From assembly GCA_000091205.1 (NCBI GenBank), contig AP006494.2: a DNA stretch of 64,000 nucleotides; one strand, 5' to 3'. The DNA is from Cyanidioschyzon merolae. Lineage: Eukaryota. How positions within the stretch are numbered: position 1 is the stretch's first letter; each line of letters opens with the position of its first letter. This document shows positions 21,796 to 52,618 of this stretch, one piece after another. The notes beneath the pieces are model-generated. The model searched no databases. It had not been told where the DNA came from and was given only the letters and a program-made list of their open reading frames with translations. A program made the position numbers and the translations under genes.

Positions 21796-23683
21796 TGACG
21801 CGATCTAGCGGCGCTGGTGGCGTTTGCCCTGGCATTCGGCCGATCGCTGTGCTCTGCTGTGCTGGGTGTTCGTTGCCATTATAGCTGTCAGAGGCGTTCG
21901 CTTCACTGGATGCTGGGCGAATGCATCGACGTGGTCGAGTGTTGATCAATGTTTCGAATTCACATGCCAAAGCGGAATCGTCATCGGGTCGTTGGTGGTC
22001 TGCAAAGAATCGGGCAGTCCGCCGTATCGCATCGGGGGATCCTGACTACGACGAACAGACGCGTTCGCGGTACGCTGGTGTCTTGACGCTCCTCGTGAGA
22101 AGCCTAGGGCGGTTCAGTGCATCTATCTAGGTTACATGAGCAGAAAGACTCCCGGAAAAAGTGACAATTGATTAGCGAATGTAGCAGCGGAGACCGGTGC
22201 CCCTGCCCGTGATCATCAGGTCTGTACGGCAGTGTTGGCAGGGAATCTCGACGTATTGGATACACAAAGATGGAAACACCGGTCTCACAGGATCCTTCGT
22301 TCCCGTTGCAGGTATTTGGTATCCTTTGCGGCGTACGGGCTAAACGAAGAAACAAGTGCGCTTTCCATGCCGCTGTGAGCGCCTCGTTGGATGCCACGTC
22401 GCCGTACCTACACGCCGTGGTACGCCCGCAGCCGCCATGCGCCTCGATCATGCACCGCAATGCAGTGCTGCGCCGAGGCGCTCGCCTCGAGTGCCTCGAA
22501 CGCATCCATGCCATCATGAATGCGACGGATCCTACGCGCATCCAGTCCGGTTGCTTCTGGGGTTTGGCATGGAGCATCCGACCAGTCGTATCTGAAACGC
22601 AACCCTCAACGATATCCAGGGGATCGGTCTCATCTCGACTGCGACTCTACGAGAGACTCGGTGCATCTTGGTTCTAGACGGTCTCCAAACGATGCATCCA
22701 AGCGAACCGCTGGGACCTGCAAACGTCGGCGGTATCCAGGATGCCATGCCGTACACTGAGCCAATGATCAGCGATAGGTGCCTACTGCATCCGCCTCCCG
22801 GTTGCAGCAGCGAGGCAGGCCTCCAGCGACTCCGCCTCTGCCCAGAAGCGGAAGCGAAAGGCGCCCTGACAGCGATTGCGTTTTGGCGCCTCGATCGATT
22901 GCATGATGGTGCTTCACAGTACATTTATGGAACATTAGGTATTAAAATGGTCATAAATATACAAGCGTCTTGCGCATCGAACTCCAAAGCAGGTGTTTGG
23001 CGACGCACCCAGGTGGCTCCAGCGTTGCTTGTGCATAGCGGCTCAGCGGGAACGCTTGCACGGAAAGCCCTCTAATAAACCAGTCTTTTCGCATACTTTG
23101 GTGGAAAGCTTCGGTCGTCCTGAATATCAAGTGCGAGACTGGCTGCCAAAAGAGTCTAGAACTTGGACGAACAGGTTTTTCGCTGAACTGCAGTTCGCCC
23201 TGTACGTGCCGGTGGGAGCGCGCGGGCCTCCCCTGTGCCTGCACGACTGCGGAGGCGCACCTGCCGCTGGTATTGCGGCACTGACTTGGAACTGCGTCCG
23301 TGCGGAGTGCACGTACACTCGGCGGAAGTGAGAAGTGTTCGTGTTATTGCCGGTGCTGGTGCTATTGCTGCAACGCGCTCGCACAGTGTGGTGACAAGCG
23401 GCACAGCGTCGACGAGCGCTGCCGCTCCTCAACGAGAACACGCCACGCAGAAAACGCTCACCGCGGATCGCTATCTACGTGAGCGCGTGTTCCTGAAGCT
23501 TATCCGCGCGCCGGGTTCACGCGCTCGCTGACAAATCGGCAACCAGGTTTTGTCCTGGAAGCAGTAGGTCCCACGCGAGCGTGCTGTCGCTACCGCGCTT
23601 AGCACAAACCTTTCCAAGACGGGGTTTACGCGACTTGGGCCCGAACAGTGCTTTTGCCTGCATTTCATTGTAACACGAAGCAC

Positions 23684-26600
23684 ATGCTAGATACGGGACC
23701 CCCAGCGCCACCTCAATCCATTTTACATAACTTTTCGGCCTCAGGATACACCGCTGCCGATGATTGCCCCGATGAGCTCTTGCTAGCTGCTCTCGAAAAG
23801 AGCGGTAACCAAGCGTCCACCGCGGTGGGCGTCCCGCAAGCACCGTTCAACAATGAGCGTATCAACGAGACAGCGCTCGAGTTTCCGCTTTGCGCACGGG
23901 ACGAGCGTCCCGCAGCCGTCCCGCAAGCACCGTTCAACAATGAGCGTATCAACGAGACAGCGCTCGAGTTTCCGCTTTGCGCACGGGACGAGCGTCCCGC
24001 AGCCGTCCCGCAAGCACCGTTCAACAATGAGCGTATCAACGAGACAGCGCTCGAGTTTCCGCTTTGCGCACGGGACGAGCGTCCCGCAGCCGTCCCGCAA
24101 GCACCGTTCAACAATGAGCGTATCAACGAGACAGCGCTCGAGTTTCCGCTTTGCGCACGAGACGAGCGTCCCGCAGCCGTCACGCTCGACGAGGAGGCTG
24201 CAAATTCATGGACCTTTCCGGGTGCGTTGCACATTCGGGAGTACCAGTTCAACATTGTCCGCCGAGCGCTCACGCGCAATACCCTGGTCTGCCTCCCAAC
24301 AGGATTGGGTAAGACCCTGATCGCGGCCGTCGTGATGCTGAACTACATGCGCTGGTACCCTGACGGCATCGTCGTTTTTGTAGCGCCAACAAGACCACTC
24401 GTTCACCAGCAAATGAAGGCATGCTATCAGAGCGCAGGTATTGCACCCCAGCTCACAGCTGAGTTGACGGGCCATACGCGTTTGGCTGCCCGTCGAGCGC
24501 TCTGGCATTCCCGCCGGGTCTTCTTCTCAACCCCGCAGGTGATGTTGAACGATGTCCTGCGACACATCTGTCCCGTCCAGCGCATTGTCTGCGTCGTCTT
24601 TGATGAAGCGCACCGGGCAACTGGTCGATACGCTTACTGTGGACTGGTCTCCGAAATAGAACGGAGCACGGGGGGCTGTTTCCGCGTGCTTGCCCTGACG
24701 GCAACGCCAGGAAGCAGCGCGAACGCCATCCAGCAGGTTATCCACAACCTCCGAATAGCACATCTCGAGTTTCGGCAGGAAAGCGACCCGGACGTACTCC
24801 CGTACACGTACGAGCGCCAGGTGCGGGTAGAGCGAGTTCCTCTGGACGCGGCAATCGCTCAAGTCCTCGGTGCTTTTCAGCGGAGCCTTGCGAGCACGCT
24901 ACAGAAGCTCTGTGCACACGGTGCTTTTTATCAGCGCAACCCGGAAAAAGTGCAACACTACCAGCTAGTCATTGCACAGCGGCGTTGGATTGAGGCTTCT
25001 CGACGACAACAGACATCGAACGTCAATGCCAGCAGAACACTTCCCGTGGCGCTCTTTCGTGACTTTGCGCACGCGCTCCTACTCAGTCGATCAGTTGAGC
25101 TTTTGCGCTCTCAGGGACTAGGAACATGTGTTCGGTACCTCGAGCAGGAACGCACCGCTCAAGCAAAAGGCAACCCGCGTTCTCCGAATGAGCTCACCCG
25201 TCGAAGTGAGCTCCAGGAGCTCCACCTCCGAGTCAAACAGCTTCTCGAGCACGGTACGCGCCATCCGAAGATTGAACGATGCAAGGAGCTCGTTGTCCAG
25301 CACTTTCTGCGGCACGGCTCGTCGGCGTCAACACGAGTAATGATTTTCGTCCAGTACCGCGATGTCGTAGCAGAGCTGGAGGCAGCACTTTCCCAAGCGG
25401 CACCGACGGTTCGACCCGCCTCCTTCATCGGCCAAGCAAACAGTGGTATGACACAAGCCGACCAACATCGTATCATGCGCTTATTTCGACAGGGTGCGCT
25501 GAATTGCCTGGTGAGCACCAGTATCGGTGAAGAGGGCCTCGATATCGGGCACGTTGACCTCATCATCAGTTTCGACGCACTCGGATCGCCGATTCGCATG
25601 CTGCAACGGATGGGCAGGACTGCCAGGGCTCGTGCAGGCCAAGTCATTGTCCTTGTTTCGGAGTCGGCGGAATCACAGCGTTTCGAGGAGATGAATCGTC
25701 GAGCGAATGGTATCGCCGAAACGCTCCGCGATAAGTATAGCAAGTTTAAGTTTTTCAAGGAGTCACCGCTCATGCTGCCGGCTGAAGGCCAGCCGATTCG
25801 ATGCCAGGTGCTGCCGCTCACAGCGATGCCCGCGCTAGAGTCGCAGTCCCAGGAGCCTGAACGTCCCCGAGGGGAAGCGGGTTCGACGCAAGCCCCGCCG
25901 CTGTCGCCACGACTCGAGCGTTTGCTGGTGCTCTGCGTCAACTCAAATCGATCTATGGACTGGATGAAACGCCGTCCGTTGCTGGCGCTGAGCGCATCGC
26001 GGGATACATCGACTGAGGCGGCTCAGATTGTCCTCAACGAAAGCAGGTCCATCGAAGCGCAGTATCGGGTACGCTGCACTTCAACCACGTCGATGCTCTG
26101 GATCCGACTTCACCGACTTGTGCAGCACTTCCTTACCGGAATGCAGGCATCAGAGGTACCAATTTGCTTTGAACGGAGGCAGGGCATCGTCGGGCCTGGC
26201 CGCTGCTGTACGGATTGGAGACGCTCCCGCGAGCTCGCGCTCGACGTCCAGCCTGTTCCCTGCAGGGCGTCCGCGGAGCGCGCTCGGGCTCTGCTGGAGA
26301 CAGGGCCTGCTGAGGCCGCTCGGGCGCCTTTGAGCGATTTCCAGCTCACCTCGGATGCGTCGCAAACGGGTCCCCCGCATTCGGAGAGTGCTCATGGAGA
26401 ACCGATCATACCAATGTGTTCAACGAGCGTCCGGATCGACGCGACTGCAAGCGCTCCAGCCGCTGGTACAGGTGCTGTCGCCTCAGCCAGCGCAGTCTAT
26501 TCGTGTTCAGAAAGCGCTCGGTGCGATGCACATTCGGACCCCACATTGGATACAGCGCGTTATGCATCATCGCCCTGGAATGCACTTTTTCCTGAACCAT

Positions 26601-28996
26601 TGTCGACTCCAGCAGATGCCTCTGATCGCGTCGGTGCCCCGCGTGGCTCTCTGGACGCGGCCAGCAACACATCGAGCACCTCTTCGGTGGTGGAGATACC
26701 CACACCCCCGGAGCTGGTGTCGCGAGCACAGCAGGAGTGTCCAGCAGCGATTCCATCTTCAGATTCAAGGTCATCATCATCATCATCATCTGCGTCGTAT
26801 TCACTGTGTATTGCGGGGAGCTGTTCGCCGCACGGCACTCGGGGCGGTCACGAGTCGGTGCGGTCTACGCGAAGCAGCACACCTGCTTGCCGTATTGATG
26901 AATTTATCTCAAATACGGGTTTGTGGCATTCGTCGTCGGTTGCTGTTCAATCATTACAACGCGAAGCGAATGCAACGTTTCGGCCGACTGAGCATCCGGA
27001 TATTCCGAGTGATCACGGTGCATTCAGTGAAGCGCTGCAAGGTGCTGCACACAATGCTAACACTGGCAGCGTGGCGTGTCATGTGTCAGCTGCGCGGGAA
27101 TGCGCTACTCCAGACGTGCCAGAGGAGGTCGCTTCTTCAGATATCTATTGGGATGAGGTACTCTACCGCACTGCCGCTCTCGCGGAAGAGACCATTCATG
27201 GCCAGTCATGTAGATGTCGAGCGTCACCGCAGCAACTGAACGCGCACTCGCCAAAAACGGCACATTTAGGCTCACCTGCTCATGCGAGCGTCCAGCATCG
27301 TGGAGGCGGCACCCAGTCGGCAAGTCCCCAGACGTACGCCCAGCATTGCCCCGGTTACCCCGGTGAGGCGGTGACTCCAGGGGCGCCACCGTCCTTCCTG
27401 GACGACAACGGTAGCCTGAACTCGGTCGGAGCACCAGCTCGGATACCTACCAAGCGACAACGCGCTCACCTACGGCGAGCACAGGCGAGCGATACGGGAA
27501 CACCGGTGCAGTCGCCGAGCGGCGGCAGCCAGTGTGTCTGTACCCGTTCGAGTGCACGCTCGCACCGCGTTGCTGCGTTAGAGCACTCTCCGGCTATTTT
27601 GACGCCATTCTTGCACCACCGCGCCGCAAGAAGGCCACGGCTGGTCCGAATCAGCGACGCTGCCAGTCAGGTTGCACAGGGCACTGCTCTGAGCGACGCG
27701 CTGCCTAGCGGTAGCGCCAGTCGCTGTCTTGAGGTTGCGGAGGCGTCGCCACGAATATCCGCGAGGCTCGGCTCGGTTGCGCAGCGTCCACGCGCGGCTG
27801 GTACCCGAAGCGCACCCAACAAAAGGATCCGACGCAAGCGTCGGCGTGAACTCGTAGCCGCTTTCATCGACGATCAAGCGGAGGTCTCCAGTTCCGAAGG
27901 CAATGCCTCCGTTGATCCAGACGTTGCCGAAGCGCTTCGCGGCACCGACGGCGACTCCACTAGTCCTGATACCGATACGCCGGGCTCCCTGCGAGCATTC
28001 CTCACGAGCCAGGCGACGAGCCAGTCCACCGGTGAACAACGTCGACAGCGGGCGATGTACTGGCGCTCGTTGCGCTCGCCACAGCTCCACTCACCATTAT
28101 CAGCACAAGTGGAGCACAGTTTGACGACAACGACAACGGATCATCGTGCCTCTATCGTCCAGAGTGGAGCCTCTTCAGAAACCACATCACGACACGGTAT
28201 GCTGGCCGGTCTGAATGAGCCCAGCGAAGGCACTGCAACGGAGCCGGTTGCATCGTCTCCAGACACACCGTGTTATCGCTGTGGGCGGAGTCAGGACCCG
28301 GAGCGTACGCTCCTGTGTGACCGCTGCGACATCGAGTGCCATACGTATTGCTGTGATCCACCGTATGCATCTGTTCCCAGTGGATCCTGGTACTGTCCCC
28401 GGTGTGAGGCGTATCAGCGGAATGTACGCATCCTGGTACATTCGCGCAACCTGAACCATCCCCTACTGACCGCAGTTCGGGAGCAACTCGCGCGCTCGTA
28501 TCCATTGTCGGGTCTGGTACCGTGTGCGGGCCTCGAAGCAGACTATGTCGTGTCGCCGCGAGTTGCAGTGTTCTTTCTCGGACCCGAAAGTGGTCGCACA
28601 CCGAATAGAGAACAGTGGTTCGAGCGACTCGAACGAGCAGCTTCCCGTTACACGCGCATCTTCGTGTGTTGGGTATGGACGAGTCCAATTCAGTTGAGTC
28701 CACGAGGTCTCCCGGCCGTGCTCAACACAAATGCAACGCTCCTTCGCTGCAGCGGAATCGCTCAGGCAGCGGAACGCATCACTGACCTTGCGCTTCTCGA
28801 GCACAGAAGCGGTTACGGACTCGCCTGGGTTCCTTTGTCGTGGCCGGATCGCTTTCAAATGGCCTTAGGATTTCTTCAAAAAGCCGCCGATATGTCCTTC
28901 CTACATGCTATGCTGCTTCTGCTTCGCCACGGCAACGGGATGGACGCTCTACGGGACTGGTATCGCCACGAGGGCGCAGCAATGGCGACAACGTGA
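23684..28996 (+). CDS. FANCM: FANCM/Mph1/Hef-family DEAH helicase (~1770 aa) with C-terminal PHD finger and degenerate ERCC4-like pseudo-nuclease domain
   Basis: ORF 23648..28996 (GTG at 23648; first ATG 23684). Helicase motifs REYQFNIVRRALTRNTLVCLPTGLGKTLIAAVVM, VVFVAPTRPLVHQQ, CVVFDEAHRATG, LVSTSIGEEGLDIGHVDLIISFDALGSPIRMLQRMGRTARARAG at ~24210..25650. PHD finger CYRCGRSQDPERTLLCDRCDIECHTYCCDPPYASVPSGSWYCPRCE at ~28270..28408. ERCC4-like LEADYVVSPRVAVFFLG with the ERK triad replaced, at ~28420..28800. Confidence 0.85.
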   Translation: MLDTGPPAPPQSILHNFSASGYTAADDCPDELLLAALEKSGNQASTAVGVPQAPFNNERINETALEFPLCARDERPAAVPQAPFNNERINETALEFPLCARDERPAAVPQAPFNNERINETALEFPLCARDERPAAVPQAPFNNERINETALEFPLCARDERPAAVTLDEEAANSWTFPGALHIREYQFNIVRRALTRNTLVCLPTGLGKTLIAAVVMLNYMRWYPDGIVVFVAPTRPLVHQQMKACYQSAGIAPQLTAELTGHTRLAARRALWHSRRVFFSTPQVMLNDVLRHICPVQRIVCVVFDEAHRATGRYAYCGLVSEIERSTGGCFRVLALTATPGSSANAIQQVIHNLRIAHLEFRQESDPDVLPYTYERQVRVERVPLDAAIAQVLGAFQRSLASTLQKLCAHGAFYQRNPEKVQHYQLVIAQRRWIEASRRQQTSNVNASRTLPVALFRDFAHALLLSRSVELLRSQGLGTCVRYLEQERTAQAKGNPRSPNELTRRSELQELHLRVKQLLEHGTRHPKIERCKELVVQHFLRHGSSASTRVMIFVQYRDVVAELEAALSQAAPTVRPASFIGQANSGMTQADQHRIMRLFRQGALNCLVSTSIGEEGLDIGHVDLIISFDALGSPIRMLQRMGRTARARAGQVIVLVSESAESQRFEEMNRRANGIAETLRDKYSKFKFFKESPLMLPAEGQPIRCQVLPLTAMPALESQSQEPERPRGEAGSTQAPPLSPRLERLLVLCVNSNRSMDWMKRRPLLALSASRDTSTEAAQIVLNESRSIEAQYRVRCTSTTSMLWIRLHRLVQHFLTGMQASEVPICFERRQGIVGPGRCCTDWRRSRELALDVQPVPCRASAERARALLETGPAEAARAPLSDFQLTSDASQTGPPHSESAHGEPIIPMCSTSVRIDATASAPAAGTGAVASASAVYSCSESARCDAHSDPTLDTARYASSPWNALFPEPLSTPADASDRVGAPRGSLDAASNTSSTSSVVEIPTPPELVSRAQQECPAAIPSSDSRSSSSSSSASYSLCIAGSCSPHGTRGGHESVRSTRSSTPACRIDEFISNTGLWHSSSVAVQSLQREANATFRPTEHPDIPSDHGAFSEALQGAAHNANTGSVACHVSAARECATPDVPEEVASSDIYWDEVLYRTAALAEETIHGQSCRCRASPQQLNAHSPKTAHLGSPAHASVQHRGGGTQSASPQTYAQHCPGYPGEAVTPGAPPSFLDDNGSLNSVGAPARIPTKRQRAHLRRAQASDTGTPVQSPSGGSQCVCTRSSARSHRVAALEHSPAILTPFLHHRAARRPRLVRISDAASQVAQGTALSDALPSGSASRCLEVAEASPRISARLGSVAQRPRAAGTRSAPNKRIRRKRRRELVAAFIDDQAEVSSSEGNASVDPDVAEALRGTDGDSTSPDTDTPGSLRAFLTSQATSQSTGEQRRQRAMYWRSLRSPQLHSPLSAQVEHSLTTTTTDHRASIVQSGASSETTSRHGMLAGLNEPSEGTATEPVASSPDTPCYRCGRSQDPERTLLCDRCDIECHTYCCDPPYASVPSGSWYCPRCEAYQRNVRILVHSRNLNHPLLTAVREQLARSYPLSGLVPCAGLEADYVVSPRVAVFFLGPESGRTPNREQWFERLERAASRYTRIFVCWVWTSPIQLSPRGLPAVLNTNATLLRCSGIAQAAERITDLALLEHRSGYGLAWVPLSWPDRFQMALGFLQKAADMSFLHAMLLLLRHGNGMDALRDWYRHEGAAMATT
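23831..24178 (+). repeat. Four perfect tandem copies of an 87-bp unit, in frame inside the FANCM-like CDS (29-aa repeat PQAPFNNERINETALEFPLCARDERPAAV)
   Basis: Unit start positions 23831, 23918, 24005, 24092. Only one substitution is visible across all copies. Confidence 0.95.
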
Positions 28997-30425: not shown

Positions 30426-30636
30426 GCTAGGTCGCTAGGTCGCTAGGTTGCTAGGTCGCTAGGTCGCTAGGTCGCTAGGTCGCTAGGTCGCTAGGTCGCT
30501 AGGTCGCTAGATCGCTTGGTCGTTAGGTCGCTAGGTCGCTAGGTCGCTAGGTCGCTAGGTCGCTAGGTCGCTAGGTCGCTAGGTCGCTAGGTCGCTAGGT
30601 CGCTAGGTCGCTAGGTCGCTAGGTCGCTAGGTCGCT
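30426..30636. repeat. (GCTAGGTC)n 8-bp minisatellite, ~26 copies with few variants
   Basis: Read directly from sequence. Lies immediately 5' of the minus-strand RING E3 gene start (30350). Confidence 0.95.
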
Positions 30637-31883
30637 ACCGTTTCTCCGACCTGAGACGTTACCAGAGGCCTGCGGCACGGGCCCGGCGCAGGCAGGCCCT
30701 TGCGCTGCGATGATCGAGCGCGCTGCGCACTGGATACCTCATGAGCAGCTAGCGTTCACGGTTGCATGGAGCGCGGGCTGCTTGGTATCGTGTCCGGTTT
30801 TGCCAAAGGCAAGACGGGTTTGAATCTCGAGGAATGTGGTCGTGCTTTTCGAGTGAGGTATGGTGGTCTGTTTTCTGAAAGTTTAGAGCACGTACGCTTT
30901 CAGTGGAGTCTAGATCGATGCACCTAACGCACCAGGTAGAAGGAAGGCCTGCTTGCGTTGCTTCTCGTGAGGATCGGAAGCGCTTTGCGCACGTGTTTCA
31001 GCACTTGCAGGTATGCATGGGGAACGGTTCGTGGGAACGCGAAACTATTGAAGCCGCGAAAGACTGTGCACACTTTAGTTGTAGCGGTCGATGGTCAGGT
31101 GCGGAAACCTTGGGGTGCGTAGAAGGCGAGCGTTGCGCTCGCCGTTCTGCAGCGCAGAGGCTCGATCAGAAACGATCCGGTATCATAGTTGGGCACGTGC
31201 TTGCAGGGACATTGCTTACCCAGACACGCTTTTCTAAAAATACGGTCTTGTCGTTACGTTTCCTGGTTCGAGCGGGCGCGTCACCAGGTGAGGTCCACAA
31301 AGCACCTCGCTAGCGCGCGCGTTGCGGACGAATCCCAGAGAAATCACAGCGGCAGTCCAGGACTTGTACGACGAATGCAGTATAAGGGCATCATTACGTG
31401 CGGGTTGGAAGCAGTTTACGGAGGGATTTGTTGACTTTCGTCGGATCGGCGTTTGTGCCGGCCTTTGTGCCTCCCAATGAATCTTGCATATGGATTCGCT
31501 CTGGGTAGCGGCGAGGCGCCATTTTGCGCGTCAGCAGCTCTCTCTGTTGCGCTGATGTCGAGTCCGGTCTGGTGACTTTATTTGCTGGCGCATCAGGCAT
31601 GGCGCTCGAGGCATCAGCGCATCGTTACGGGCATTGGCATCCACGCGTACGCTTCCCAGCGCTTGGGTGACAGATTCGATCGCGTGCGCTTCCACTAGTC
31701 AAGCACGTAAACGGTTCCCGCCTTCAAGCGATGAGACGACGGCATACAAAGCAGAGCCTGGAACGCCTACAACGCAGATCGCGGTGCTGCTTCGGATGCC
31801 GACGCTCGCTGCAGCGCGCACGATGGATCGTCGAACGCAGCCGACGTTGCCGCCGGTGAAGTAGAACTGGATGCGTGTGTGGA

Positions 31884-35012: not shown

Positions 35013-38000
35013 TTAGGAGGTCAGCGTTCCCGCGTGAACTCGATCGAAAAAGGATCCCAGATCCTCTGCCTGAATGCCGTCCGCATACAACACCAAATCC
35101 ATGGTTAGTGAAGATGCTATCGACGCTGGTGCGTGCGACTCTATGCGCATATAAACACCATCCAGTGTAAGGAGGAGGGGGCTAGGCGCATTAGCGGGAC
35201 GCATGATGCCGACAGCGTAAAGCGTTTCTGTGAAAGGTTCTAAAGCCCGCAAAAGATCCATGAAAGCTGCCACATCGATTGGCATTGTTCGCTGGAGGTG
35301 GAGGCGGCGGAATAGCCTGCCTCTGTTCGCAGCCGCTGGACGGTGTGCATCGCCAGCAGGTGCAGCGTCCTGCATCGCCTGTGCGGTGAGGCGCGGCAGT
35401 ACACGCGAATCGGCATCATGAGTGGGAGCTGTTGTTGTTGTTGTTGTCGTCGTCGTCGTCGCTTCTGCTTCACGCAGCCAAGGTCGATTGCGCCTGCGTA
35501 CCCAGATTGCTGCAGGCTGCAGCCGGCCGTAGGGTGCACATATCACCCTGGCGTGCGGATTCCATCCACAGACGTGTTCCAGGATTTGCTGCAAACGCTC
35601 CGCAGGTACAACGTCCGACTTGGTAAATACGACTGTGTCCGCACTGGCGACAAGCTGCTGCTGGATATGGTCTTGCGACCGGAAACGGAGGCAATCCACC
35701 GCACACACAACAGCATCGACGCCGTCAAGCGGCTCGTCCGTCTCTAGGGCTAAGCGGAACGGACGCGGGTGCGATTCGAGACGGCTAGCGAGCGCTGCCT
35801 CGCTGACAGCTTCCAGCCGCTGGCGTTGCAGCAGAGTGCTCGGGCCTGGTGGCTCAAGTCGCCACGCCAGCAGGTCCTCGTGGGCGTTCAGCGCTCCAAC
35901 CAGCGAGGTTTTGCCCGCCCCTGGCAAGCCGCAGACTGCCAGAATACCCTCATTCGCGGGTAGTGGTTCAACATCTCCCGGAACAAGTATACGCTCGTTC
36001 TGTTCGCTGTTTGCTTCTGAACGCTTTGCTTCACCCGTGATGAGTATCCACGGCGGTGCGACTCGCGATGAAAGGCGCTCGACAAAAGAGGGCGGTTGAG
36101 CGGCTGGCGGGGTCTTTCCGCCGGCCCGTGTGCTGTCCGTGTTCGGTACTAGCGACTCGAAGGGGTCTTCAAACTCGCTCCAGGCTTCCGTAAAGACGAG
36201 CTCTTCGTCGCGTAGGAGACATTCATCCAACACTATCTGAATCCGCATCGCATCCAGATCTTCCCCGAGAAACACGATTTCACTGCAGCGATCGCCAAAG
36301 CGCTCATCCCATTGCAGCGGTCGCATTCTATCTTGCGAGTTCGGGGCGCTTGGCCACTGTTCCAGCGGTAGGGTAACGAGAAATCTTTGCCCACGTTTCA
36401 GGGTTATATTGTTTCCGACCTGGCTCCATTCGAGAAAACTGTCCATCCGATTTGCTAACCATAGTTTTCCGACAGAGCGCAAGACACCGTGGAAGGTGCT
36501 AATGTCACTGATCTTGTCAAATAGGCGACGCGGATGAAAAGGACGGTTCGCTCTGTAAAGAAAACTCGTCTCGGGTCGCACGGTTTCCGTGCTGAAGCCT
36601 CGCTCCCATGGTCGCGTTCCACTGTACAGCGTCGCGAGGAATTGCTCGTTGCTGAACCGCGAGTCCCAAATAGGTCGCGCGGTACCTGCTGCTGACGACA
36701 CCGCAGGAGCAGCGGGGTGCGTGGCACTGCCTCCGGTCGCTGCTCCGGGGCCCTTGGGTGCCGCTGCCTTTCCCGGATCATAACCTGCATCGGGTGCGGA
36801 GGCAGCGCCCCAGGATGCGGTGGCAGCTGTCGTCTCCTGTGACGCTGACGCCGCTGACGTCTCGGGTACCGTCGCTCTGGTGGCTGGCGTTGCAGCCGCT
36901 GTTGACGTGCCTACAGATGGTCCAGCCTTTGCTGAACTTTTTCCCGTACTCTGTGCTCTGTTCTCTGGCAATGCGGAACCGTATTTCTGGGAAGTTTTCG
37001 TCAGTTCCGTCGCAGCGAAAGAAGCAAGAACCCGGCGCCAGGTCGGCATCCAGAGCATCCGCTCCGGATCAAACGGTCGCTCGAGAATGCGCTCCAGGAG
37101 TGTTTGTGGCCATTCAGTATTCGCGTGCATGAGAATCACCTGAGCCTCGCAGTTCAAGAGTCGAAGATAACGAAGTAGGTTCTGGAAAGAGGGCGTCGGG
37201 GCTGTACGGACCTCGGGATCAGGACTTGCGTCCTGCGACTTGCGCATCGGCCGCACGTCCGCATCTGTCTCCCGACCAGGCATTTGTTGTTGGTTGTACA
37301 CGACGACAAGGTTCGCATACTCTATTTGATCCACCAGGAGCTGCACCAAATTATCAGCCTGTGCGTTACTTGCTGATCCCCGTTCCCGCTCCATAGCGGG
37401 TGGCCGTCGTGCTGACGCTCCATCGTTGTCGCCTGCACCTACATCTCCAGCTTCCACGCGCGATGCAGTTTTCTTCTCGTGCAGCAGCGTACCTCGGGAT
37501 GGACTTGAGCCGTCCCGCGAAGTCTCCACGGTATCGCTCGTCGCGAGCGCTTGGTCAGCGTCGTTGTGGCTGATTTCCAGTCCAGTCCCGCCAGTTATAC
37601 CCGTCGCTGTCGTTGGGATGCGTTCCGAAGCCGGCGACGTCTGCGCTGTATTCTCAGGGCTATACGCGACAGACGCCGTTTCTTGTTGTCGCAGCGTCGG
37701 TGCGAATACCTCCGCAGCCGCCGCTGCATCGATGACGCTCACGAGCGCAAGAAGCTGCAGCGGCCACTCAACATGCGCAAGACTGTCGGCGATGGCATAT
37801 GGCTCCTCTTTTTCAGGGCTGCAGACGATGAGGTAGTCCACACCGTACGCTGCCTGGACCTGAAACAGATTCACAGGGCTGGGTGCAGCTTCCACTGTTT
37901 GATCCGCAGCGCTCTGTACCGCGGACCCGCTTTGCGCCTGACTAGCTCTTGGCGTGCGAGCTCGTCGTCTCATCAACTGGTCAATTTTGGGTCCGAGCTC

Positions 38001-38930
38001 ATCCTGGTTCACACAGTTGTCGAGAACTTCAAAGTAGATATGGGTACCGATTAACGCGGAGCACAACGATGAAGGCAGAGATTCCGTGCACAGCGATGCA
38101 TTAACCAGCCAGCCAGCTTCATCCTCATCCCAGACGAGTCCCAGCCGAGTTGCGAGTGTTGCCGGCAAAAGCACGCCCACGCGCGGCGGGCGCTCCTCCG
38201 GCTGCGGCGATCGTTGCAGCAACTGCTCCAGCAACGTTCCTAAAAGTCGCAAACGCGCGATATCATCTAGCCCGCTGAGCACCACGGTGGGCACCGGTGT
38301 ACTTCGCAGCGTTCTCCGCTGTGTATCACTCTCCGCGGCCTGTGTGGGCTGACTTGTCTGTTGTGGTGGCCGTTGAGCAGCGCCCATGGCAGCTGCCTCT
38401 GCGCTCGCGTCTGGCGGGTCCGAACCCCCGCCGTCTGTAACATCAGCGCTCCACTGGAATGCAGGCAAAACGACCGCGAAGATCGTGCTAGTATTCCTCT
38501 GTAGAGCAACGTGGTGCAGAGAGCGACGCAGTGAGCGCTGGTTGAAAGCTACTGGTGCCGCTGCGAAAGAAGAGCGTGTTAGTGGGCGATGCTGAATGGG
38601 CCGCACCTCCCAGGCACGCCCTCGAGCATGCCTTGGGGTAAGCGTCCTCGGAACGCGACTGCTCCACTGCAATACCGTTCTTTTCTGTACTATCCTTTCC
38701 TGTGGGAATAGATATCCCGCATAAATGACTTGCCCCTGTAAAACAGGGGCGAACATGGGCAACATCAATGTACTCTTAGGGTCCTCTTCGTTTGCTGCGA
38801 ACCGGCGAGCGCTGGTGAAGCCAACCTTCATGCGCGCTCCGCGAAGCGCACTGCCGCGCACCGGTCGACGCGATCCGATGCTTTGTGTAACCGCAGGTGC
38901 TTCGAGGTGCTTTCTTACGAGGTGCTCCAT
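35013..38930 (-). CDS. Giant tandem COG0523/CobW-like (ZNG1/CBWD-family) protein: module 1 pseudo-GTPase plus CobW_C, module 2 P-loop GTPase plus divergent CobW_C, long low-complexity linkers
   Basis: Module 1: VPTVVLSGLDDIARLRLLG (P-loop lost), DYLIVCSPEKEEPYAIADSL, LQLLALVSVIDAAAAAE, QIEYANLVVVYNQQQM (NKxD lost), LLNCEAQVI, then CobW_C GKLWLANRMDSFLEW...CSEIVFLGEDLDAMRIQIVLDECLL. Module 2: ILAVCGLPGAGKTSLVGAL, LDGVDAVVCAVDCLRF, ADTVVFTKSDVV, WNPHARVI, C-terminal LVLYADGIQAEDLGSFFDRV. Neither module has a CxCC motif. The first in-frame ATG (38930) lies inside the 127-bp repeat; the next ATG is 38831. Confidence 0.65.
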   Translation of the reverse strand: MEHLVRKHLEAPAVTQSIGSRRPVRGSALRGARMKVGFTSARRFAANEEDPKSTLMLPMFAPVLQGQVIYAGYLFPQERIVQKRTVLQWSSRVPRTLTPRHARGRAWEVRPIQHRPLTRSSFAAAPVAFNQRSLRRSLHHVALQRNTSTIFAVVLPAFQWSADVTDGGGSDPPDASAEAAAMGAAQRPPQQTSQPTQAAESDTQRRTLRSTPVPTVVLSGLDDIARLRLLGTLLEQLLQRSPQPEERPPRVGVLLPATLATRLGLVWDEDEAGWLVNASLCTESLPSSLCSALIGTHIYFEVLDNCVNQDELGPKIDQLMRRRARTPRASQAQSGSAVQSAADQTVEAAPSPVNLFQVQAAYGVDYLIVCSPEKEEPYAIADSLAHVEWPLQLLALVSVIDAAAAAEVFAPTLRQQETASVAYSPENTAQTSPASERIPTTATGITGGTGLEISHNDADQALATSDTVETSRDGSSPSRGTLLHEKKTASRVEAGDVGAGDNDGASARRPPAMERERGSASNAQADNLVQLLVDQIEYANLVVVYNQQQMPGRETDADVRPMRKSQDASPDPEVRTAPTPSFQNLLRYLRLLNCEAQVILMHANTEWPQTLLERILERPFDPERMLWMPTWRRVLASFAATELTKTSQKYGSALPENRAQSTGKSSAKAGPSVGTSTAAATPATRATVPETSAASASQETTAATASWGAASAPDAGYDPGKAAAPKGPGAATGGSATHPAAPAVSSAAGTARPIWDSRFSNEQFLATLYSGTRPWERGFSTETVRPETSFLYRANRPFHPRRLFDKISDISTFHGVLRSVGKLWLANRMDSFLEWSQVGNNITLKRGQRFLVTLPLEQWPSAPNSQDRMRPLQWDERFGDRCSEIVFLGEDLDAMRIQIVLDECLLRDEELVFTEAWSEFEDPFESLVPNTDSTRAGGKTPPAAQPPSFVERLSSRVAPPWILITGEAKRSEANSEQNERILVPGDVEPLPANEGILAVCGLPGAGKTSLVGALNAHEDLLAWRLEPPGPSTLLQRQRLEAVSEAALASRLESHPRPFRLALETDEPLDGVDAVVCAVDCLRFRSQDHIQQQLVASADTVVFTKSDVVPAERLQQILEHVCGWNPHARVICAPYGRLQPAAIWVRRRNRPWLREAEATTTTTTTTTTAPTHDADSRVLPRLTAQAMQDAAPAGDAHRPAAANRGRLFRRLHLQRTMPIDVAAFMDLLRALEPFTETLYAVGIMRPANAPSPLLLTLDGVYMRIESHAPASIASSLTMDLVLYADGIQAEDLGSFFDRVHAGTLTS

Positions 38931-39510
38931 TTGCTAGAGCACATGTGATGCGGTGTATTTCCTTCATACGGTATGGAGGAAGCGGGTATTGAAAATGTTG
39001 TTGCGAAATGATTGCAACCGCAGGTGCTTCGAGGTGCTTTCTTACGAGGTGCTCCATTTGCTAGAGCACATGTGATGCGGTGTATTTCCTTCATACGGTA
39101 CGGAGGAAGCGGGTACTGAAAATGTTGTTGCGAAATGATTGCAACCGCAGGTGCTTCGAGGTGCTTTCTTACGAGTTGCTCCATTTGCTAGAGCACATGT
39201 GATGCGGTGTATTTCCTTCATACGGTACGGAGGAAGCGGGTACTGAAAATGTTGTTGCGAAATGATTGCAACCGCAGGTGCTTCGAGGTGCTTTCTTACG
39301 AGTTGCTCCATTTGCTAGAGCACATGTGATGCGGTGTATTTCCTTCATACGGTACGGAGGAAGCGGGTACTGAAAATGTTGTTGCGAAATGATTGCAACC
39401 GCAGGTGCTTCGAGGTGCTTTCTTACGAGTTGCTCCATTTGCTAGAGCACGTGTGATGCGGTGTATTTCCTTCATAGGATATGGAGGGAGCAGGTATTGA
39501 AAATACTGTT
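38889..39510. repeat. 127-bp tandem repeat, ~4.9 copies (array A), overlapping the 5' end of the CobW-like gene
   Basis: Unit starts 38889, 39016, 39143, 39270, 39397. Each unit contains CAGGTG, two further GAGGTGCT copies and the palindrome CACATGTG (CACGTGTG in the last copy). Each unit also starts an ATG ORF on the minus strand. Confidence 0.95.
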
Positions 39511-41232
39511 TCTAAATAAATAACATTTCGATCGCTCTTGGGTTCACGGAGACATCCTTGGACAGGGATACTTTTCGCGATTGATCGCAGTGTTTACAGA
39601 CGTCTTTCAAAATACATGACTTCCAATATCGACCGACTATCGCGTCAGCCACAAAGCACCGGAAAGTGTCACTGTGTGCATGTAGTGCATGGACCCCACG
39701 TCTCGCGTTAAGGACCCTGCTTATCCACTGGGCATTGAGTCGAGCACTCGCCCATTCGGAGGCCCAGTATACGCAGAGCAATGGCACATTCACTGCGAAC
39801 GCCGATGTTCGTAGCGCTCTGAGCACAGTGTCGGAGGCCCTTTCTGCCGATGCTCGGTGCCTCGACGACCTCCACAAGCACACAGGGCAATTGTGGAATC
39901 CCGCCTCGTCGGTGGAATATACGAGTCATTGCCATCTACAATCTGTTGCTGCATTCGCGAGCATATGAGAAGCCTATGCAAGCGGCATCTGTCTACGAGC
40001 AGAGGGCACTGGGCCCTGGACACTCGCTGGTGCAAGTTCTTCGACACGATGGCAACTTGTGCTTCGATGCGTCGTCTCCGGATCTCAGAACGCGCTCGCT
40101 GCGGACGCTTCGGGCAGCACTCCACACGTACTTAGCTGAGAATACGGCTTCAATGGTATGCGGGGTCGCTATATCGCCTTCATAGAACTCCGGGCTTCAA
40201 GTCACCGTGTTTATAAGCCCTAAAGAAATTGCTACAATGTTTTCGTTCGCACACCTCAGAGTATGCCAGTCTTTGCGGTGCGTCGTGTCCCGCACTGAGC
40301 GACGAATAGACCAACAACATGGAGATCTTGTACTCGTGTGTGTATGTACTTGGTACGTGCTTCTGAGGATCTAGTCCGAGTCACTGGCAGGAACGATATC
40401 GATAGAAGGCCAACACCATTTCGACTAAGCCAAGTAGAGTGTCACGAAAGAGAATCCTTCTGAACTGGAGACTCCTAGCCTGGCTACAGCCAATGTTGGG
40501 CGTTTCGTTCTTGGACGCAGCGCGCCTTATATGCCGGTAACGCATTCCCAACTGCATTACCGACTCTGAACCCGGAGCGTTTTATACTCCATAATGCAAA
40601 ACGCAAACGACAGCGCCACTCCAAACGGATGCAGCTCCGAAAAAGCGTGAGTTCCACGTACCGATTCTCATCTGGTATACAGCGACGCGCTCTGAACATC
40701 TCGCGGCGTACCCGAGTGGGTCCTTCGAATGACGATGACGATGCACTAGTCTTTAGACAGTCACAGGGACCTGTAGTAGAGCATCGCGCAAAACAGGAAG
40801 CGCTTTCCGAGCAGCACAAGAGTCGGCGATCCAGCCTGATCGAACGGGCCTCGGTAGCAAACGCCGGTTATGTCGATGACGATAGCCATCGCACCCGTAA
40901 TCATGGAAATCGTGGAAATCTCCTCTTCCGGACACTGTTTGCATTGCTCCATCAAAGCGAAACACCAGCTGATATGAATTGCTCTCGTGATGCGTGACGT
41001 GAACGCTCCTCTCGAGAGGCAGCACACATCCGGTGCAACCTCGAAAGCGTTCCGGCCGCTCTCAAGGCGGTGTTGTTAAGCAACCACCCGATCGTTGCGA
41101 TAGCGCGTATCCGCATACCGGTGTGCTTCTGTGGCCCGTCGAGAATCAATTCATGTGGACTGACGGTAGCTTCGGCGCGCAAGCTGTCGGGAAATCGGAC
41201 GCAAAGTTCGCGTTACCAAATCGATCACCGCT

Positions 41233-43320
41233 CTACGCAATAGAGTTCGACTTGTAGGCTGCTCGCAACGTCTCAAAAACACGTTCCCGCAAGAGTCGCT
41301 CGGCAGGGCGGCGGATGTCGTTCGCCGCCCCGCGGTCGGGGTGTGTCAAGAGCAGCGCTCGCCGATACGCGACCTTCACTTGCTGTTCATCCAGCAAAGC
41401 CTGCACAGTGAGACGCTCCCAGCCAGAGTCCTCACCTAGAATCTCGTGCAAAGTGCTCAGAAGCGCTCGAATGTTATGTGCTCGCGATCCGTTTCGCGTC
41501 CATTCACTGATGCGTTGCTCGACGACAAAGATGACTTCTGGGGTAGCGGTGCCATCTTGCGGCTCCAAAGTTTCCCGTGTCCCAGAGGTGACCTCACGGT
41601 AACCAGTGGAGGTTTCTGTTTCGATCGTGACCGAACTACTGTCCGCCGTGTATCGTTCACGAGCTTCATGTGCAGTGGGGGTCGAGCGTATCGCATGCTT
41701 ACGCCGCTCAGCGGTTGTGCTGCTGCTGCTGCTGCTGCCTGTACTGTTGCCGTTGCTCCTGCGAGTCGCCTGGAGAAATTGTTCGGGTGTGGCAGCATTG
41801 GAAGCCCGGACACGCTGTGGATCGTCGACGACTTCATTAACCTCATCCCAGGGGCTTGCCTCCTGTGCACCGCTATCCATCGCGGTAGCAGCCGCTACTG
41901 ACACAGCGTTTGAGCTGGAGGCAGGATGCAGCGCAGGTGCTTCCGCTGGTGTTCCAGCCGGGGCGTGATGCGCCGTTGCCTGAGCAGGGGCGCTTTGTGA
42001 CACGTCTTCAGACTCTTCCTCAATATCCACAAGCTGATCTTCGAGTGGTCCCTTGGGAGCGTTAGGCCTTGCTGTGCACGTCTGATCCTCTGCGCAATGG
42101 CCAGCAGGCCAAGTCGATGTCGACGGCGGCGACGATAATGACCCTGCCCGGGCGTTTCCTCGAGAGCTCACGACGTCAGCCACTGGTGCGGCGGCTGTGC
42201 TTGCTCCAGCGTCCGTCATTACGGCCAGTCCTCGTTCAAAAGCAGTATCCAAGGAACTTGCATCCAATTCGGATGCGCCAGTTGTCGGCGTAGGGCGCCA
42301 TTTCTCGTGTAATGTTTGCCATAACGTTTCCGGCTTGGTCGCCGTGGATCGTTCCATCTGCTTCCGAGTCGAAAGGCGCTGCAGAGCAGACCGACCGAGA
42401 GCGGCCTCATTGGATGGAGCGCCCCCGTCAGCTCCAGTCCCAGCTCCAGTTCCAGCACCAGCGGGATTCCCGCACGAATCAAGCCTCCTGTTCGGCCTGT
42501 TCCGCGTCGCAGCCTTCTTCGAAGAATCATCGCCATGAAGGCGGTGCTGCTCCGTCACCACAAAAGAGGCCGCTGCATAAAATTGTCGTTGAATTTCGAG
42601 CAGCTCTGTGAGGCAACTCGGTAGTAGCTCCGAGCGGGCCAGAATCCACGCTTCGAGGTGCACACAGGTTTCCTCGCACTTGCCCAAGAGAGGTCCCATC
42701 ACACTATTATAGACTTCTTCCACAGAACCAACGTACCCATATGCACCACTCTGCATACTTAGCTGCCGCAAACTTGCCTGTGCTTGTTGAATCTCTTCGA
42801 CCAAGCCAAGGACGCCCTCGAGGAGCGCCTGACCTTCATTGAGTGCCATCGCTAGCGGCTGCTGAACCCGCAGCCGGAGACGTTTCTCAGTCACGCGCAG
42901 CACTCGTTCTTCAAGGTCCAGCTGACACTCGTTCCATTGCGCCCAGAGCGCCCGTCGTGTAGCGTCCGGTTCCATGTTCGATGCGCTGGTACCGGGCTCT
43001 GTGACAAACGGCGATGAGGGTACTGCGTCGCGCCAGTTTGCCATAAACTCCTGCATGCTCCTCAAAATACGCTCTATCGACGTTTCGAATCCAACCCAAT
43101 CATGCAACATCTGGTATAGCGTGGCTCCAGCAAAGCTAAGTCGCTGAAAGCGCTCACCGAATGTAGCTAGCCGTTGCCCGACGTGCTCCCACCGGCTCAG
43201 TACGTTCCGAACGTTCACCGGGCCGGTGCTATTCGCTTTGGCCTCAGAAACACTCCATTGTGCTGCACGCTTCGCCTCCTGCCCCAGTTCCCGCAGTCTA
43301 TTCCGCCAGGAGCGGAACAT
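41233..43320 (-). CDS. Auxilin-like J-domain protein (C-terminal J domain)
   Basis: ORF 41233..43401 (TTG at 43401; first ATG 43320). C-terminus NIRALLSTLHEILGEDSGWERLTVQALLDEQQVKVAYRRALLLTHPDRG matches the auxilin/GAK J-domain (NIRALLSTMH...QVKKVYRKAVLVVHPDK). Upstream region is low-complexity with (GCT)n-encoded poly-Ala. Confidence 0.75.
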   Translation of the reverse strand: MFRSWRNRLRELGQEAKRAAQWSVSEAKANSTGPVNVRNVLSRWEHVGQRLATFGERFQRLSFAGATLYQMLHDWVGFETSIERILRSMQEFMANWRDAVPSSPFVTEPGTSASNMEPDATRRALWAQWNECQLDLEERVLRVTEKRLRLRVQQPLAMALNEGQALLEGVLGLVEEIQQAQASLRQLSMQSGAYGYVGSVEEVYNSVMGPLLGKCEETCVHLEAWILARSELLPSCLTELLEIQRQFYAAASFVVTEQHRLHGDDSSKKAATRNRPNRRLDSCGNPAGAGTGAGTGADGGAPSNEAALGRSALQRLSTRKQMERSTATKPETLWQTLHEKWRPTPTTGASELDASSLDTAFERGLAVMTDAGASTAAAPVADVVSSRGNARAGSLSSPPSTSTWPAGHCAEDQTCTARPNAPKGPLEDQLVDIEEESEDVSQSAPAQATAHHAPAGTPAEAPALHPASSSNAVSVAAATAMDSGAQEASPWDEVNEVVDDPQRVRASNAATPEQFLQATRRSNGNSTGSSSSSSTTAERRKHAIRSTPTAHEARERYTADSSSVTIETETSTGYREVTSGTRETLEPQDGTATPEVIFVVEQRISEWTRNGSRAHNIRALLSTLHEILGEDSGWERLTVQALLDEQQVKVAYRRALLLTHPDRGAANDIRRPAERLLRERVFETLRAAYKSNSIA

Positions 43321-43581
43321 GACCGCGTCACCAACCCAGTCTGAGAACTGAGCGCTCTCGAGAAAAAGTCGCGTAGCGCCGCGCCGAGGGCGCTGGTGCA
43401 AGGCGCGCTTCGTTCTCGGACTGGGTAGGCACAGGTGCGGTGTTCCCTAGACGCGTTGCCAGGTTAGAGAGCGTTTGACCTTTCGATCTGTGAACGTTCA
43501 GAGTATTCGTGTTTCTGCAACGTCCTGGTTGTGTATCAAGAGAGCATTAAGTTCGACGGTTTTCTTTCCGAGGGCTTGTGA

Positions 43582-44397
43582 ATGCAGCGGAAGCGCCCCG
43601 AGCGCTGTCAACGCTGTGGGAAGCGCTTGCATCAAGAGCATGTGTGTGCAGCCAAGGTTTGTAGTTGGATCCGATGCTTCTCTGCTACGAAGTTTCTTCT
43701 TATGTGCTTACTATTACTGCTCTTCGTCCTGCCGGTACACGCAAAGCGAACCAAAGCAGAAACAACGACTCCAGCGTTTGAGCCCGGCTTTGAATACATA
43801 ACGTACGCCTCAGTGGTGAAGCTGGAGCACCCGCTGACGGGCCTTCGACTGCACTCCCAGGAGGTTGCGTACGGGACAGGTTCGAAGCAGCAAACCGTAA
43901 CTGCAGTCGAACGACACCTCGATGATGATCGTGCGCTATGGTTGATCAAAGCTCCCCAGCAAAGCGGCGGGCGTTTTTTCGCGGAGTCGAAAGGCATGCG
44001 GCGTGTTCGTTGTGGTGACCTCATTCGACTGGAGCATGTGGTAACGCGGACGCATTTACACAGCCATCGTTTGGCATCACCGTTGACTGGCTCCCAGGAG
44101 GTCAGCGCATTTTCGCTGTCCGCTGAGGGCAGTGGTGACTCGGGGGATCACTGGCAAGTTGAATGTATCTCGAAAGGGGCGGTCTTCTGGGCTCGCAACG
44201 AGACCGTTTACCTACGTCATGTTGATACAGAGACCATGTATCTTTCGGTTCTGGGGGAGCAGCGTTATCATGATCCTCTAGAGAATCACGCTGAAGTGGT
44301 TTGTTTAGAGCGCAAATCCATTCGACAACCTGAGCTGCGAGCACAGTGGGTAGCATCGGAGGGTTTCTTCCACGCGTCTGCCGCAGTTGAATCATGA
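43582..44397 (+). CDS. SDF2-like protein with three MIR motifs (ER lumenal chaperone-associated family)
   Basis: ATG at 43582. A second ATG at 43702 starts a signal-peptide-like MCLLLLLFVLPVHA. VVKLEHPLTGLRLHSQEVAYGTGSKQQTVTAV...WLIK...VRCGDLIRLEHVVTRTHLHSHRLASPLTGSQEVSAF...HWQVEC...VYLRHVDTETMYLSVLGEQ matches SDF2. No HDEL at the C-terminus. Confidence 0.8.
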   Translation: MQRKRPERCQRCGKRLHQEHVCAAKVCSWIRCFSATKFLLMCLLLLLFVLPVHAKRTKAETTTPAFEPGFEYITYASVVKLEHPLTGLRLHSQEVAYGTGSKQQTVTAVERHLDDDRALWLIKAPQQSGGRFFAESKGMRRVRCGDLIRLEHVVTRTHLHSHRLASPLTGSQEVSAFSLSAEGSGDSGDHWQVECISKGAVFWARNETVYLRHVDTETMYLSVLGEQRYHDPLENHAEVVCLERKSIRQPELRAQWVASEGFFHASAAVES

Positions 44398-44877
44398 CGA
44401 GACTGCTATGGCTGAGCGCACTCGGTGGTAAACCGCGAGCGCTGCGACAGTACTGACACAGCGATCATAGTGCCCCGCAGTTGCGGAACATGAGAGGCGT
44501 GTCGCTGTAGACCCGTCGAAAACTTTTGTTGCCTTGCAGCTCACGCGGTTAGCGCGGGTCGCAGCTTGCGAGCACATTCCCTTGGCAGGAGGTGCACGGC
44601 GAACGAAGTGCATCCCTGTAGCGAGGCGACGAGGCGTCCCAGGAGCCACACGCGGGCATCTCTTGCACACGCTGCGGCTGGTCTAGGCAGCCTTCATCGA
44701 ACCTAAAGAGTCGCTATATATAGCGCCCGTGCAAACGTTTCGACGCGAGTCAGCGTCACAGTTCGAGGAGTGCAACCGCGCCCGCCTCCGGAAGCCTTGG
44801 CTACTGTTGCGAGCGTAAGGCAACGCCTGCAGGAGAGCGAGGTACCGCCTGGACCGCGGTGTCTCGCAAGGACACTT

Positions 44878-45513
44878 CAACGCTGACCATATTCTACGCC
44901 GTCGACTTTTGCAGCGCTTCACGATGACTGGTGTATCCTAGTGCACGAGCAAGACTCTGGCTTTGCTCTAGGTCGCCCAACGTAACAGAGCTGCAACTGT
45001 GTTTCAACGCTGACCATATTCTACGCCGTCGAGTCTTGCAGCGCTTCACGTTGACTGGTTTATCCTAGTGTACGAACAAGACTCTGGCTTTGCTCTAGGT
45101 CGCCCAACGTAACAGAGCTGCAACTGTGTTTCAACGCTGACCATATTCTACGCCGTCGAGTCTTGCAGCGCTTCACGTTGACTGGTTTATCCTAGTGTAC
45201 GAACAAGACTCTGGCTTTGCTCTAGGTCGCCCAACGTAACAGAGCTGCAACTGTGTTTCAACGCTGACCATATTCTACGCCGTCGAGTCTTGCAGCGCTT
45301 CACGTTGACTGGTTTATCCTAGTGTACGAACAAGACTCTGGCTTTGCTCTAGGTCGCCCAACGTAACAGAGCTGCAACTGTGTTTCAACGCTGACCATAT
45401 TCTACGCCGTCGAGTCTTGCAGCGCTTCACGTTGACTGGTTTATCCTAGTGTACGAACAAGACTCTGGCTTTGCTCTAGGTCGCCCAACGTAACAGAGCT
45501 GCAACTGTCCTCC
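44878..45513. repeat. 127-bp tandem repeat, 5 copies (array B), sequence unrelated to array A
   Basis: Unit starts 44878, 45005, 45132, 45259, 45386. Copies 2-5 are identical; copy 1 carries several substitutions. Between SDF2-like 3' end and TMPK 5' end. Confidence 0.95.
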
Positions 45514-45910
45514 TGCGCGCACGCCTCCAATGCCAGTACCAGTGCCGGGAAGAGCAAGTCCTTGAGTAAACGCGAAACGCTGTTCGTTCTCCTCGATAGA
45601 CGGTGTTCATCCAGGCCTGGCTCTCGGAACAACCCGATTTCTCCTGCGGGCAAACAGAACGTGCCCTGGGGTGCGTTATTCTCAACGTATCCCGCACGAA
45701 ATCGAACGCAAAAGCACCAGGGAAACGAAGCAGAAACGGTGTTTTCGTGGTGGCGGTCGCCTGGCGTTTCAAGAGACAGTGACATCGTTTCTGTCACTTG
45801 GGTGCCAGTTACAGACCAGGAAACGTATTCGTTTCCGTCACCGCCACTGTGGTACGCACCAGAGCTGTTCCTGGTGTGCGTTGAGTGCCACTTTCAGCTA
45901 CAGTCTCACA

Positions 45911-46546
45911 ATGAACGGGACCCGGGGAACGCTTATTGCGTTCGAAGGCGGCGATCGAGCTGGAAAGAGCACACAGGCGAAGCAAGCTCTTCAATGGATA
46001 CGAGAAACTCTTCGTGAACCAGCAGTGCTGTGGCACTTTCCGAACCGGCACTCAGCCACGGGTCGGCTGCTCGACACCTACCTAAGCGGCAGTACAGAGC
46101 TCACTGGCCAAGTAGCACACCTGTTGTTCGCAGCAAACCGCTGGGAGCGCGTTGAGGAACTCTGGCAGCTCCTAGATAGCGGATCCCATGTCATTCTCGA
46201 TCGTTATGCGTACTCTGGAGTAGCATTCTCCGTAGCAGCACGGGGACTCGATCCCGAATGGTGCCTGGCAGCGGATCGCGGCCTACCGTCACCAGACTTG
46301 GTCTTGTTTCTGGACCTGGACCCGCAGCTCGCTTCGAAGCGCGGGAACTTTGGTGAAGAACGCTACGAGCAACTTGTGATTCAACAGCGAGTTCGCCAGT
46401 TCTTTCTGGACCGTCTATTTCAAAGCGAGAACTGGGTGCGCATCTCTGCGGAGCAACCTCCGGATCAAGTGCAACTACAGTGCCGACGCGCCATTACGGA
46501 GATGCTGCCTCGAGTGCGAAGCCTTCCGCTCAAACTCCTTTGGTAA
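45911..46546 (+). CDS. TMPK: Thymidylate kinase (dTMP kinase)
   Basis: Track ORF starts at a GTG at 45671; first ATG 45911 (MNGTRGTLIAFEGGDRAGKSTQAK...). P-loop EGGDRAGKST, LID/DRYAYSGVAF, LVLFLDLDPQLASKRGNFGEERYE. Collinear with eukaryotic TMPK. Confidence 0.88.
   Translation: MNGTRGTLIAFEGGDRAGKSTQAKQALQWIRETLREPAVLWHFPNRHSATGRLLDTYLSGSTELTGQVAHLLFAANRWERVEELWQLLDSGSHVILDRYAYSGVAFSVAARGLDPEWCLAADRGLPSPDLVLFLDLDPQLASKRGNFGEERYEQLVIQQRVRQFFLDRLFQSENWVRISAEQPPDQVQLQCRRAITEMLPRVRSLPLKLLW

Positions 46547-49304: not shown

Positions 49305-49398
<94 letters not shown>
49305..49398. repeat. (GCGT)n tetranucleotide microsatellite, ~23 copies, alternating purine/pyrimidine
   Basis: Read directly. 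Ends 58 bp upstream of the SENP ATG, in the divergent OAT/SENP intergenic region. Confidence 0.95.
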
Positions 49399-49399
<1 letters not shown>

Positions 49400-52404: not shown

Positions 52405-52523
52405 ACCAGGAATATACGGCTAGCAGGGGAATCGTGATGGAGCGTGTTTCGCGTGACCAGTGCGGATCTGGTTCCTGTTCAAAAGGCATGTTGGACAAAA
52501 TTGATCCTATATATCTATCTTCG

Positions 52524-52618
52524 TGCAAAATGGGCGATTTTAACTAGATATTTTATATATGTACATTTTCATGCTAAACGGGCGATTGCAACTAGATATT
52601 CCATATATGTTCGTGTTC
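52524..52618. repeat. ~48-bp imperfect direct repeat x2 inside an AT-richer island
   Basis: TGCAAAATGGGCGATTTTAACTAGATATTTTATATATGT / TGCTAAACGGGCGATTGCAACTAGATATTCCATATATGT. Confidence 0.8.

Follow-up and report, generated by a model that had tools for sequence, protein, structure and literature searches.

An intergenic minisatellite of Cyanidioschyzon merolae, its natural allele series and a neighbouring array of equal period

Array B, a tandem array of 127-bp units in an intergenic spacer of Cyanidioschyzon merolae strain 10D, is very probably a young, neutral and polymorphic minisatellite (VNTR), and the equal period of an unrelated array nearby, array A, is by the same judgement a coincidence. 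The assignment as a VNTR follows from a series of alleles with one, two and five copies. As it stands, array B is a polymorphic minisatellite of the usual kind, in an alga whose genome is compact, and is of little significance. Its interest lies in the full allele series found in nature, from the unduplicated state through a two-copy founder with its filler junction to the amplified form, which makes the locus a clean textbook case of the birth of a minisatellite.

The locus and array B in strain 10D

The DNA analysed here, referred to as the window, is a 64-kb stretch of nuclear DNA of C. merolae strain 10D, from a chromosome record of 859,119 bp, with a mean G+C content of 57%. Three of its proteins match C. 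merolae 10D exactly, namely ornithine aminotransferase (BAM80891), an SDF2-like protein (BAM80889) and dTMP kinase (BAM80890), and the domains encoded by its open reading frames (ORFs) are those of ordinary housekeeping proteins, RFC-type AAA ATPase, Rad21, DP, KAS, gyrase A and tocopherol cyclase among them. Array B had been placed between the SDF2-like and dTMP kinase genes by a first-pass annotation of this DNA, and the gene coordinates agree: the gene of the SDF2-like MIR-domain protein (43582..44397, + strand) flanks it upstream and that of dTMP kinase (45911..46546, + strand) downstream, with the dTMP kinase ATG 402 bp downstream of the array end. The same spacer holds a perfect 14-nt palindrome, CGCTATATATAGCG (44712..44725), approximately 150 bp upstream of array B, which is without variation across the six contigs and 10D that were aligned and which may serve as a TATA-like or terminator element.

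According to Tandem Repeats Finder (TRF) and a copy-by-copy comparison, array B occupies 44876..45508 (633 bp) with a period of 127 bp, 5.0 copies and 98% matches. The five-copy array of period 127 described earlier is therefore real, with its limits moved by 2–5 bp from 44878..45513. It consists of exactly five head-to-tail segments of native spacer, each of 125 bp, with four GT dinucleotides as joints. Copy 1 (44876..45000) is of the ancestral type, being 100% identical to the single copy of metagenome contigs and to copy 1 of two-copy contigs; it is followed by the GT filler of the founding duplication junction (45001..45002), which is present in 10D and in all two-copy alleles, is absent from single-copy alleles, and recurs at 45128–45129, 45255–45256 and 45382–45383 of the 10D array. 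Copies 2–5 (45003..45508) are of a derived type, and all four are identical over the 125-bp segment, as had been claimed; the accompanying figure of about eight substitutions in copy 1 did not hold, since the comparison counts six, at unit positions 31, 33, 49, 58, 69 and 74. All six fall within 44 bp of the 125-bp unit and in the same copy, a clustering with p of ~0.02 by a rough range-test.

Natural alleles of array B

The locus was compared between 10D and 12 distinct contigs of this species from hot-spring metagenomes. Copy-number polymorphism, which the first-pass annotation had proposed to look for, is present, with one, two and five copies. Eight of the 12 contigs (L008–L013, L015 and L016) carry the array B segment once, as a 125-bp copy with 100% identity to the 10D edge copy 1, so that the single-copy allele, which is ordinary spacer sequence, is the commonest natural state. 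The other four (L007, L014, L017 and L019) carry two copies with GT between them, a count to be read as a lower bound, as short-read metagenome assemblies can collapse identical copies. Copy 2 of these two-copy alleles has five substitutions, at unit positions 31, 33, 49, 58 and 74; 10D copies 2–5 have the same five and in addition C69T, which is found only in 10D. The ancestral copy, on the other hand, is invariant in 13 of 13 alleles (12 contigs and 10D). Between the SDF2-like stop region and the ATG of dTMP kinase, the spacer is 1022 bp long in eight contigs, 1149–1150 bp in four and 1530 bp in 10D, and the steps in length among alleles are accordingly 127 bp and 3 × 127 bp. In a metagenome scan, three contigs were found, all from the array B locus.

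The flanks of the array contain 46 variable sites in 3236 bp, a diversity of ~0.5%, with a mosaic pattern of SNPs that indicates a recombining population. This matches the meiotic recombination, the heterozygosity of 0.59% and the efficient recombination between direct repeats described for Cyanidioschyzon merolae (PMC13353863). One pair of contigs, L014 with two copies of B and L015 with one, differs at only two of the 3236 aligned flank positions, and both differences (window positions 44850 and 44872) lie no more than 26 bp from the left edge of array B, a pattern that suggests either that a short tract was converted or exchanged along with the change in copy number or that the metagenome assembly is chimeric.

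These alleles also bear on whether the array, or its copy number, might be an artefact of the reference assembly. With ~630 bp, both arrays come near to what a Sanger read can span, and the 2007 finishing paper reported more than 20 kb of earlier misassembly (PMC1955436). However, at least two copies of B with the same junction occur in four independent metagenome assemblies, and several metagenome contigs contain array A or break inside it. As the 127-bp register thus recurs at both loci in independent assemblies, neither array is a product of the 10D assembly, and an artefact is very unlikely. Doubt is limited to the exact number of identical interior copies, for which the 10D count of five, at ~630 bp near the length of a Sanger read, could be an underestimate.

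Origin of array B

The series of alleles allows the history of the array to be proposed in three steps. First, 125 bp of unique sequence in the spacer that separates the SDF2-like and dTMP kinase genes were duplicated in tandem with a 2-nt GT filler, a step displayed by the alleles themselves. In the single-copy allele, the segment begins with TTCAAC and its end, AACTGT, runs straight into CCTCCT without GT; at the founding junction, GT has been inserted without microhomology, repeating the GT that precedes it. It is this sum of a 125-bp segment and a 2-nt filler that fixes the period of array B at 127. A microhomology-mediated founding duplication was considered and rejected, in view of the segment start TTCAAC as against the following CCTCCT and of the GT inserted at the junction. 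Small tandem duplications with junction fillers are produced when double-strand breaks are repaired by end joining, in events of the Pol theta or Pol alpha-primase type. The founding junction of array B resembles these duplications in its lack of microhomology and its 2-nt GT insertion, and it appears to bear an end-joining-type signature of break repair, a class of repair that we infer from the junction sequence; one junction does not allow the enzymes to be named.

As the second step, the second copy acquired five substitutions, clustered at unit positions 31–74, which are likewise visible in the two-copy alleles. Clustered substitutions in a new copy are not standard for repair by end joining with fillers. 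The five substitutions of copy 2 correspond to 4% divergence, compared with a population diversity of ~0.5%, and are all in one copy, a pattern not accounted for if the copies simply diverged neutrally once duplicated. Error-prone synthesis during repair, gene conversion templated by a divergent allele or constraint on the ancestral copy might account for it.

In the last step, C69T arose in the 10D lineage, after which the derived 127-bp unit was amplified from one to four copies, in an order that the alleles make plain. Unequal homologous exchange or replication slippage between repeats is the most likely mechanism of this amplification, which spared the outer, ancestral copy. That the edge copy represents the ancestral sequence follows from its 100% identity to the single copy in eight natural contigs. 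The earlier proposal of a recent expansion or homogenisation is thereby borne out, with an edge copy that is ancestral and four interior copies of one derived type.

Array B shares many features with the minisatellite or VNTR loci of human and yeast and with the VNTR markers of apicomplexans: head-to-tail, non-coding units of tens to about a hundred bp, copy-number polymorphism in nature (1, 2 and 5 copies) and identical interior copies next to a divergent edge copy. It has a tandem unit, varies in copy number (with short-read counts as lower bounds) and is locus-specific within the 64-kb window. It differs from the usual minisatellite in the size of its unit, since 127 bp is near the upper limit for loci given that name, and in that the population still displays both the single-copy allele from which it was founded and the junction of that founding event.

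Array A

Array A, at 38886..39517 under permissive TRF settings (otherwise 38889..39504), has a period of 127 bp, 5.0 copies and an unrelated unit, which confirms the earlier description of another array of 127 bp and about five copies. Its copy at the right edge departs from the interior unit of 10D at 15–19 of 127 positions (15 of 127 within 10D), with a distinctive set of variants that all strains share. The copy next to it is a mosaic of edge and interior sequence in L007, L009, L017 and L019; that of L008 shows no difference from the interior unit of 10D, and the short fragment in L010 matches this unit too. Two contigs, L007 and L017, cross array A, and L008, L009, L010 and L019 end within it; every contig that reaches the locus has at least 1.9 copies. 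Given the shared variant pattern of the edge copy, the varying copy beside it and the presence of at least 1.9 copies in all contigs that reach the locus, array A can be taken as an independent array of the type represented by B, and as the older of the two. The copy numbers of the two arrays are uncoupled across strains, as L008 has a single copy of B and ends inside a multi-copy array A.

Copy 1 of array A contains the annotated start codon of BAM80887 (ORF 35013..38930, − strand; 1305 aa with CobW/G3E-type domains), so that the first 14 codons of this ORF are repeat sequence. The same ATG is found in three of the four other copies, where it opens upstream ORFs of 89–93 codons, and is missing from the right-edge copy. 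The true start of BAM80887 may be a downstream ATG.

The shared period of 127 bp

The two units are unrelated, in agreement with the earlier claim that the arrays have no shared ancestry: when dimers of the units were aligned locally, in both orientations, the best score was 16 against a shuffle mean of 16.3, and the best of all ungapped rotations reached 43 of 127 identities against 44.7 for shuffles, with no rotation or strand above the shuffled controls. An 87-bp unit from the same window, compared in all rotations and on both strands, likewise showed no similarity to the A or B unit beyond shuffles.

From the equal period, it had been proposed that a structural or mechanistic constraint lies behind both arrays. 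In the form weighed here, such a constraint would favour tandem units of ~127 bp, arrays A and B being two products of one process, with a sub-nucleosomal protected particle, a unit the size of an Okazaki fragment and a preferred slippage length as candidates. What speaks for such a constraint is that unrelated arrays 5.4 kb apart share a period of 127, a copy number of 5.0 and nearly the same total length (632 versus 633 bp), a joint match in 10D that is less likely than a match of period alone, and that both 127-bp registers were seen again in independent assemblies. Against this, the period of array B is the sum of 125 bp of native segment and 2 nt of filler, the same window contains arrays with periods of 40, 48 and 87 bp, and a 9.5–11.5-bp WW periodicity is absent from both units. 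The nucleosome core comprises 147 bp, more than the 127 bp of the unit. In addition, permissive TRF detected no further 127-bp tandem duplication, young or degenerate, in the 64 kb, and the copy numbers of A and B vary independently between strains. The constraint is thus unsupported by these data and we consider it unlikely.

Periods of at least 40 bp in the window are 40, 48, 87, 127 and 127 (permissive TRF), and the chance that a given pair of arrays shares its period is 0.2–0.8% under uniform or log-uniform distributions of period, which are assumed and not empirical. Since five arrays make 10 pairs, a shared period is expected in ~2–8% of windows under these assumed distributions, and several such matches would therefore be expected in a genome of 16.5 Mb divided into 64-kb windows. 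Coincidence becomes less probable when the agreement in copy number, 5.0 for each array, is taken into account; this agreement may partly reflect a ceiling of ~630 bp set by Sanger read length in the reference, which is speculation. Chance is the most likely source of the equal period, and we regard it as very probable.

A wider form of the idea, in which tandem duplications of C. merolae would be founded or amplified preferentially at ~127 bp, a length set by a chromatin or replication unit, and unrelated 127-bp arrays would be over-represented genome-wide, is improbable to a slightly greater degree. Only such a genome-wide excess of 127-bp arrays would indicate a new length-setting mechanism. 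Literature searches for this alga turned up no paper on 127-bp repeats, none on minisatellites and none on nucleosome mapping.

Arrays A and B were also compared with nucleosome-scale satellites, whose monomers measure ~150–180 bp. They have in common with these the tandem arrangement and the notion of a monomer length set by chromatin. They differ in having a monomer below the nucleosome core, arrays of only ~0.6 kb (633 bp in the case of B) and no helical (WW) phasing, and in that each sequence is confined to one locus in the window, with two unrelated units in place of one family. Membership in a nucleosome-scale satellite family was rejected on these grounds.

Possible functions of the repeat unit

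The neutrality of array B has to be weighed against two proposals of function. The array might act in cis, its copies holding candidate promoter or enhancer sites of dTMP kinase or terminators of the SDF2-like gene, with copy number tuning expression. That the ATG of dTMP kinase follows the array after 402 bp, and that the ancestral copy is without variation across 13 alleles (12 contigs and 10D), would fit such a role. Yet zero segregating sites in 125 bp are not unusual, as ~1.8 are expected from the 46 variable sites in 3236 bp and P is ~0.17; moreover, the single-copy allele is the commonest in nature, and it is the mutated type, rather than the conserved one, that has been amplified. On balance, a cis-regulatory role, as far as it can be read from sequence, seems doubtful, and little weight is given to it. 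The proposal that the unit is a small RNA gene in tandem (snoRNA, tRNA-like or other ncRNA) is extremely unlikely. A unit of ~127 nt does fall in the size range of small RNAs, and a box C/D-like motif, GUGAUGC...CUGA, with a 4-bp terminal stem can be recognized in array A by eye. Array B, however, has no comparable motif, an Rfam scan of 38500..46000 gave no match in array A or B up to E = 10, ARAGORN found no tRNA in either array, and both strands of both units fold no better than shuffles, with z from −0.46 to +1.23. A tandem array of snoRNA, tRNA or 5S genes was rejected by the same results.

Dispersed copies of the A or B unit were absent from the 64-kb window. The sole match is one of 15 nt, exact, between array B positions 33–47 and 27027..27041 (E = 0.015), judged to be chance given the multiple queries.

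Other repeats in the window

Several other repeats of the window were recorded along with the two arrays. An 87-bp tandem repeat of 4.1 copies, 99% identical (23830..24185), lies in frame within ORF 23648..28996 (+ strand), and its translation contains a 29-residue unit (VPQAPFNNERINETALEFPLCARDERPAA) four times; these repeats stand just upstream of the DEAD and Helicase_C domains of a 1782-codon helicase ORF that contains a PHD finger too. A long octanucleotide microsatellite, (GCTAGGTC) × 26.5, occupies 30426..30637. A (TGCG)n tract varies in length, with 23.8 units in 10D (49305..49399), 17.8 in L001 (9322..9392) and 14.8 in L017 (13704..13762). An AT-rich 48-bp intergenic minisatellite varies in copy number as well, with 2.2 copies in 10D (52504..52610), 4.1 in L001 (6004..6198) and 2.9 in L002 (6090..6226). 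Together with arrays A and B, this 48-bp array could be used as a VNTR marker for the typing of strains in populations of Cyanidioschyzon, whose sexuality has now been recognized.
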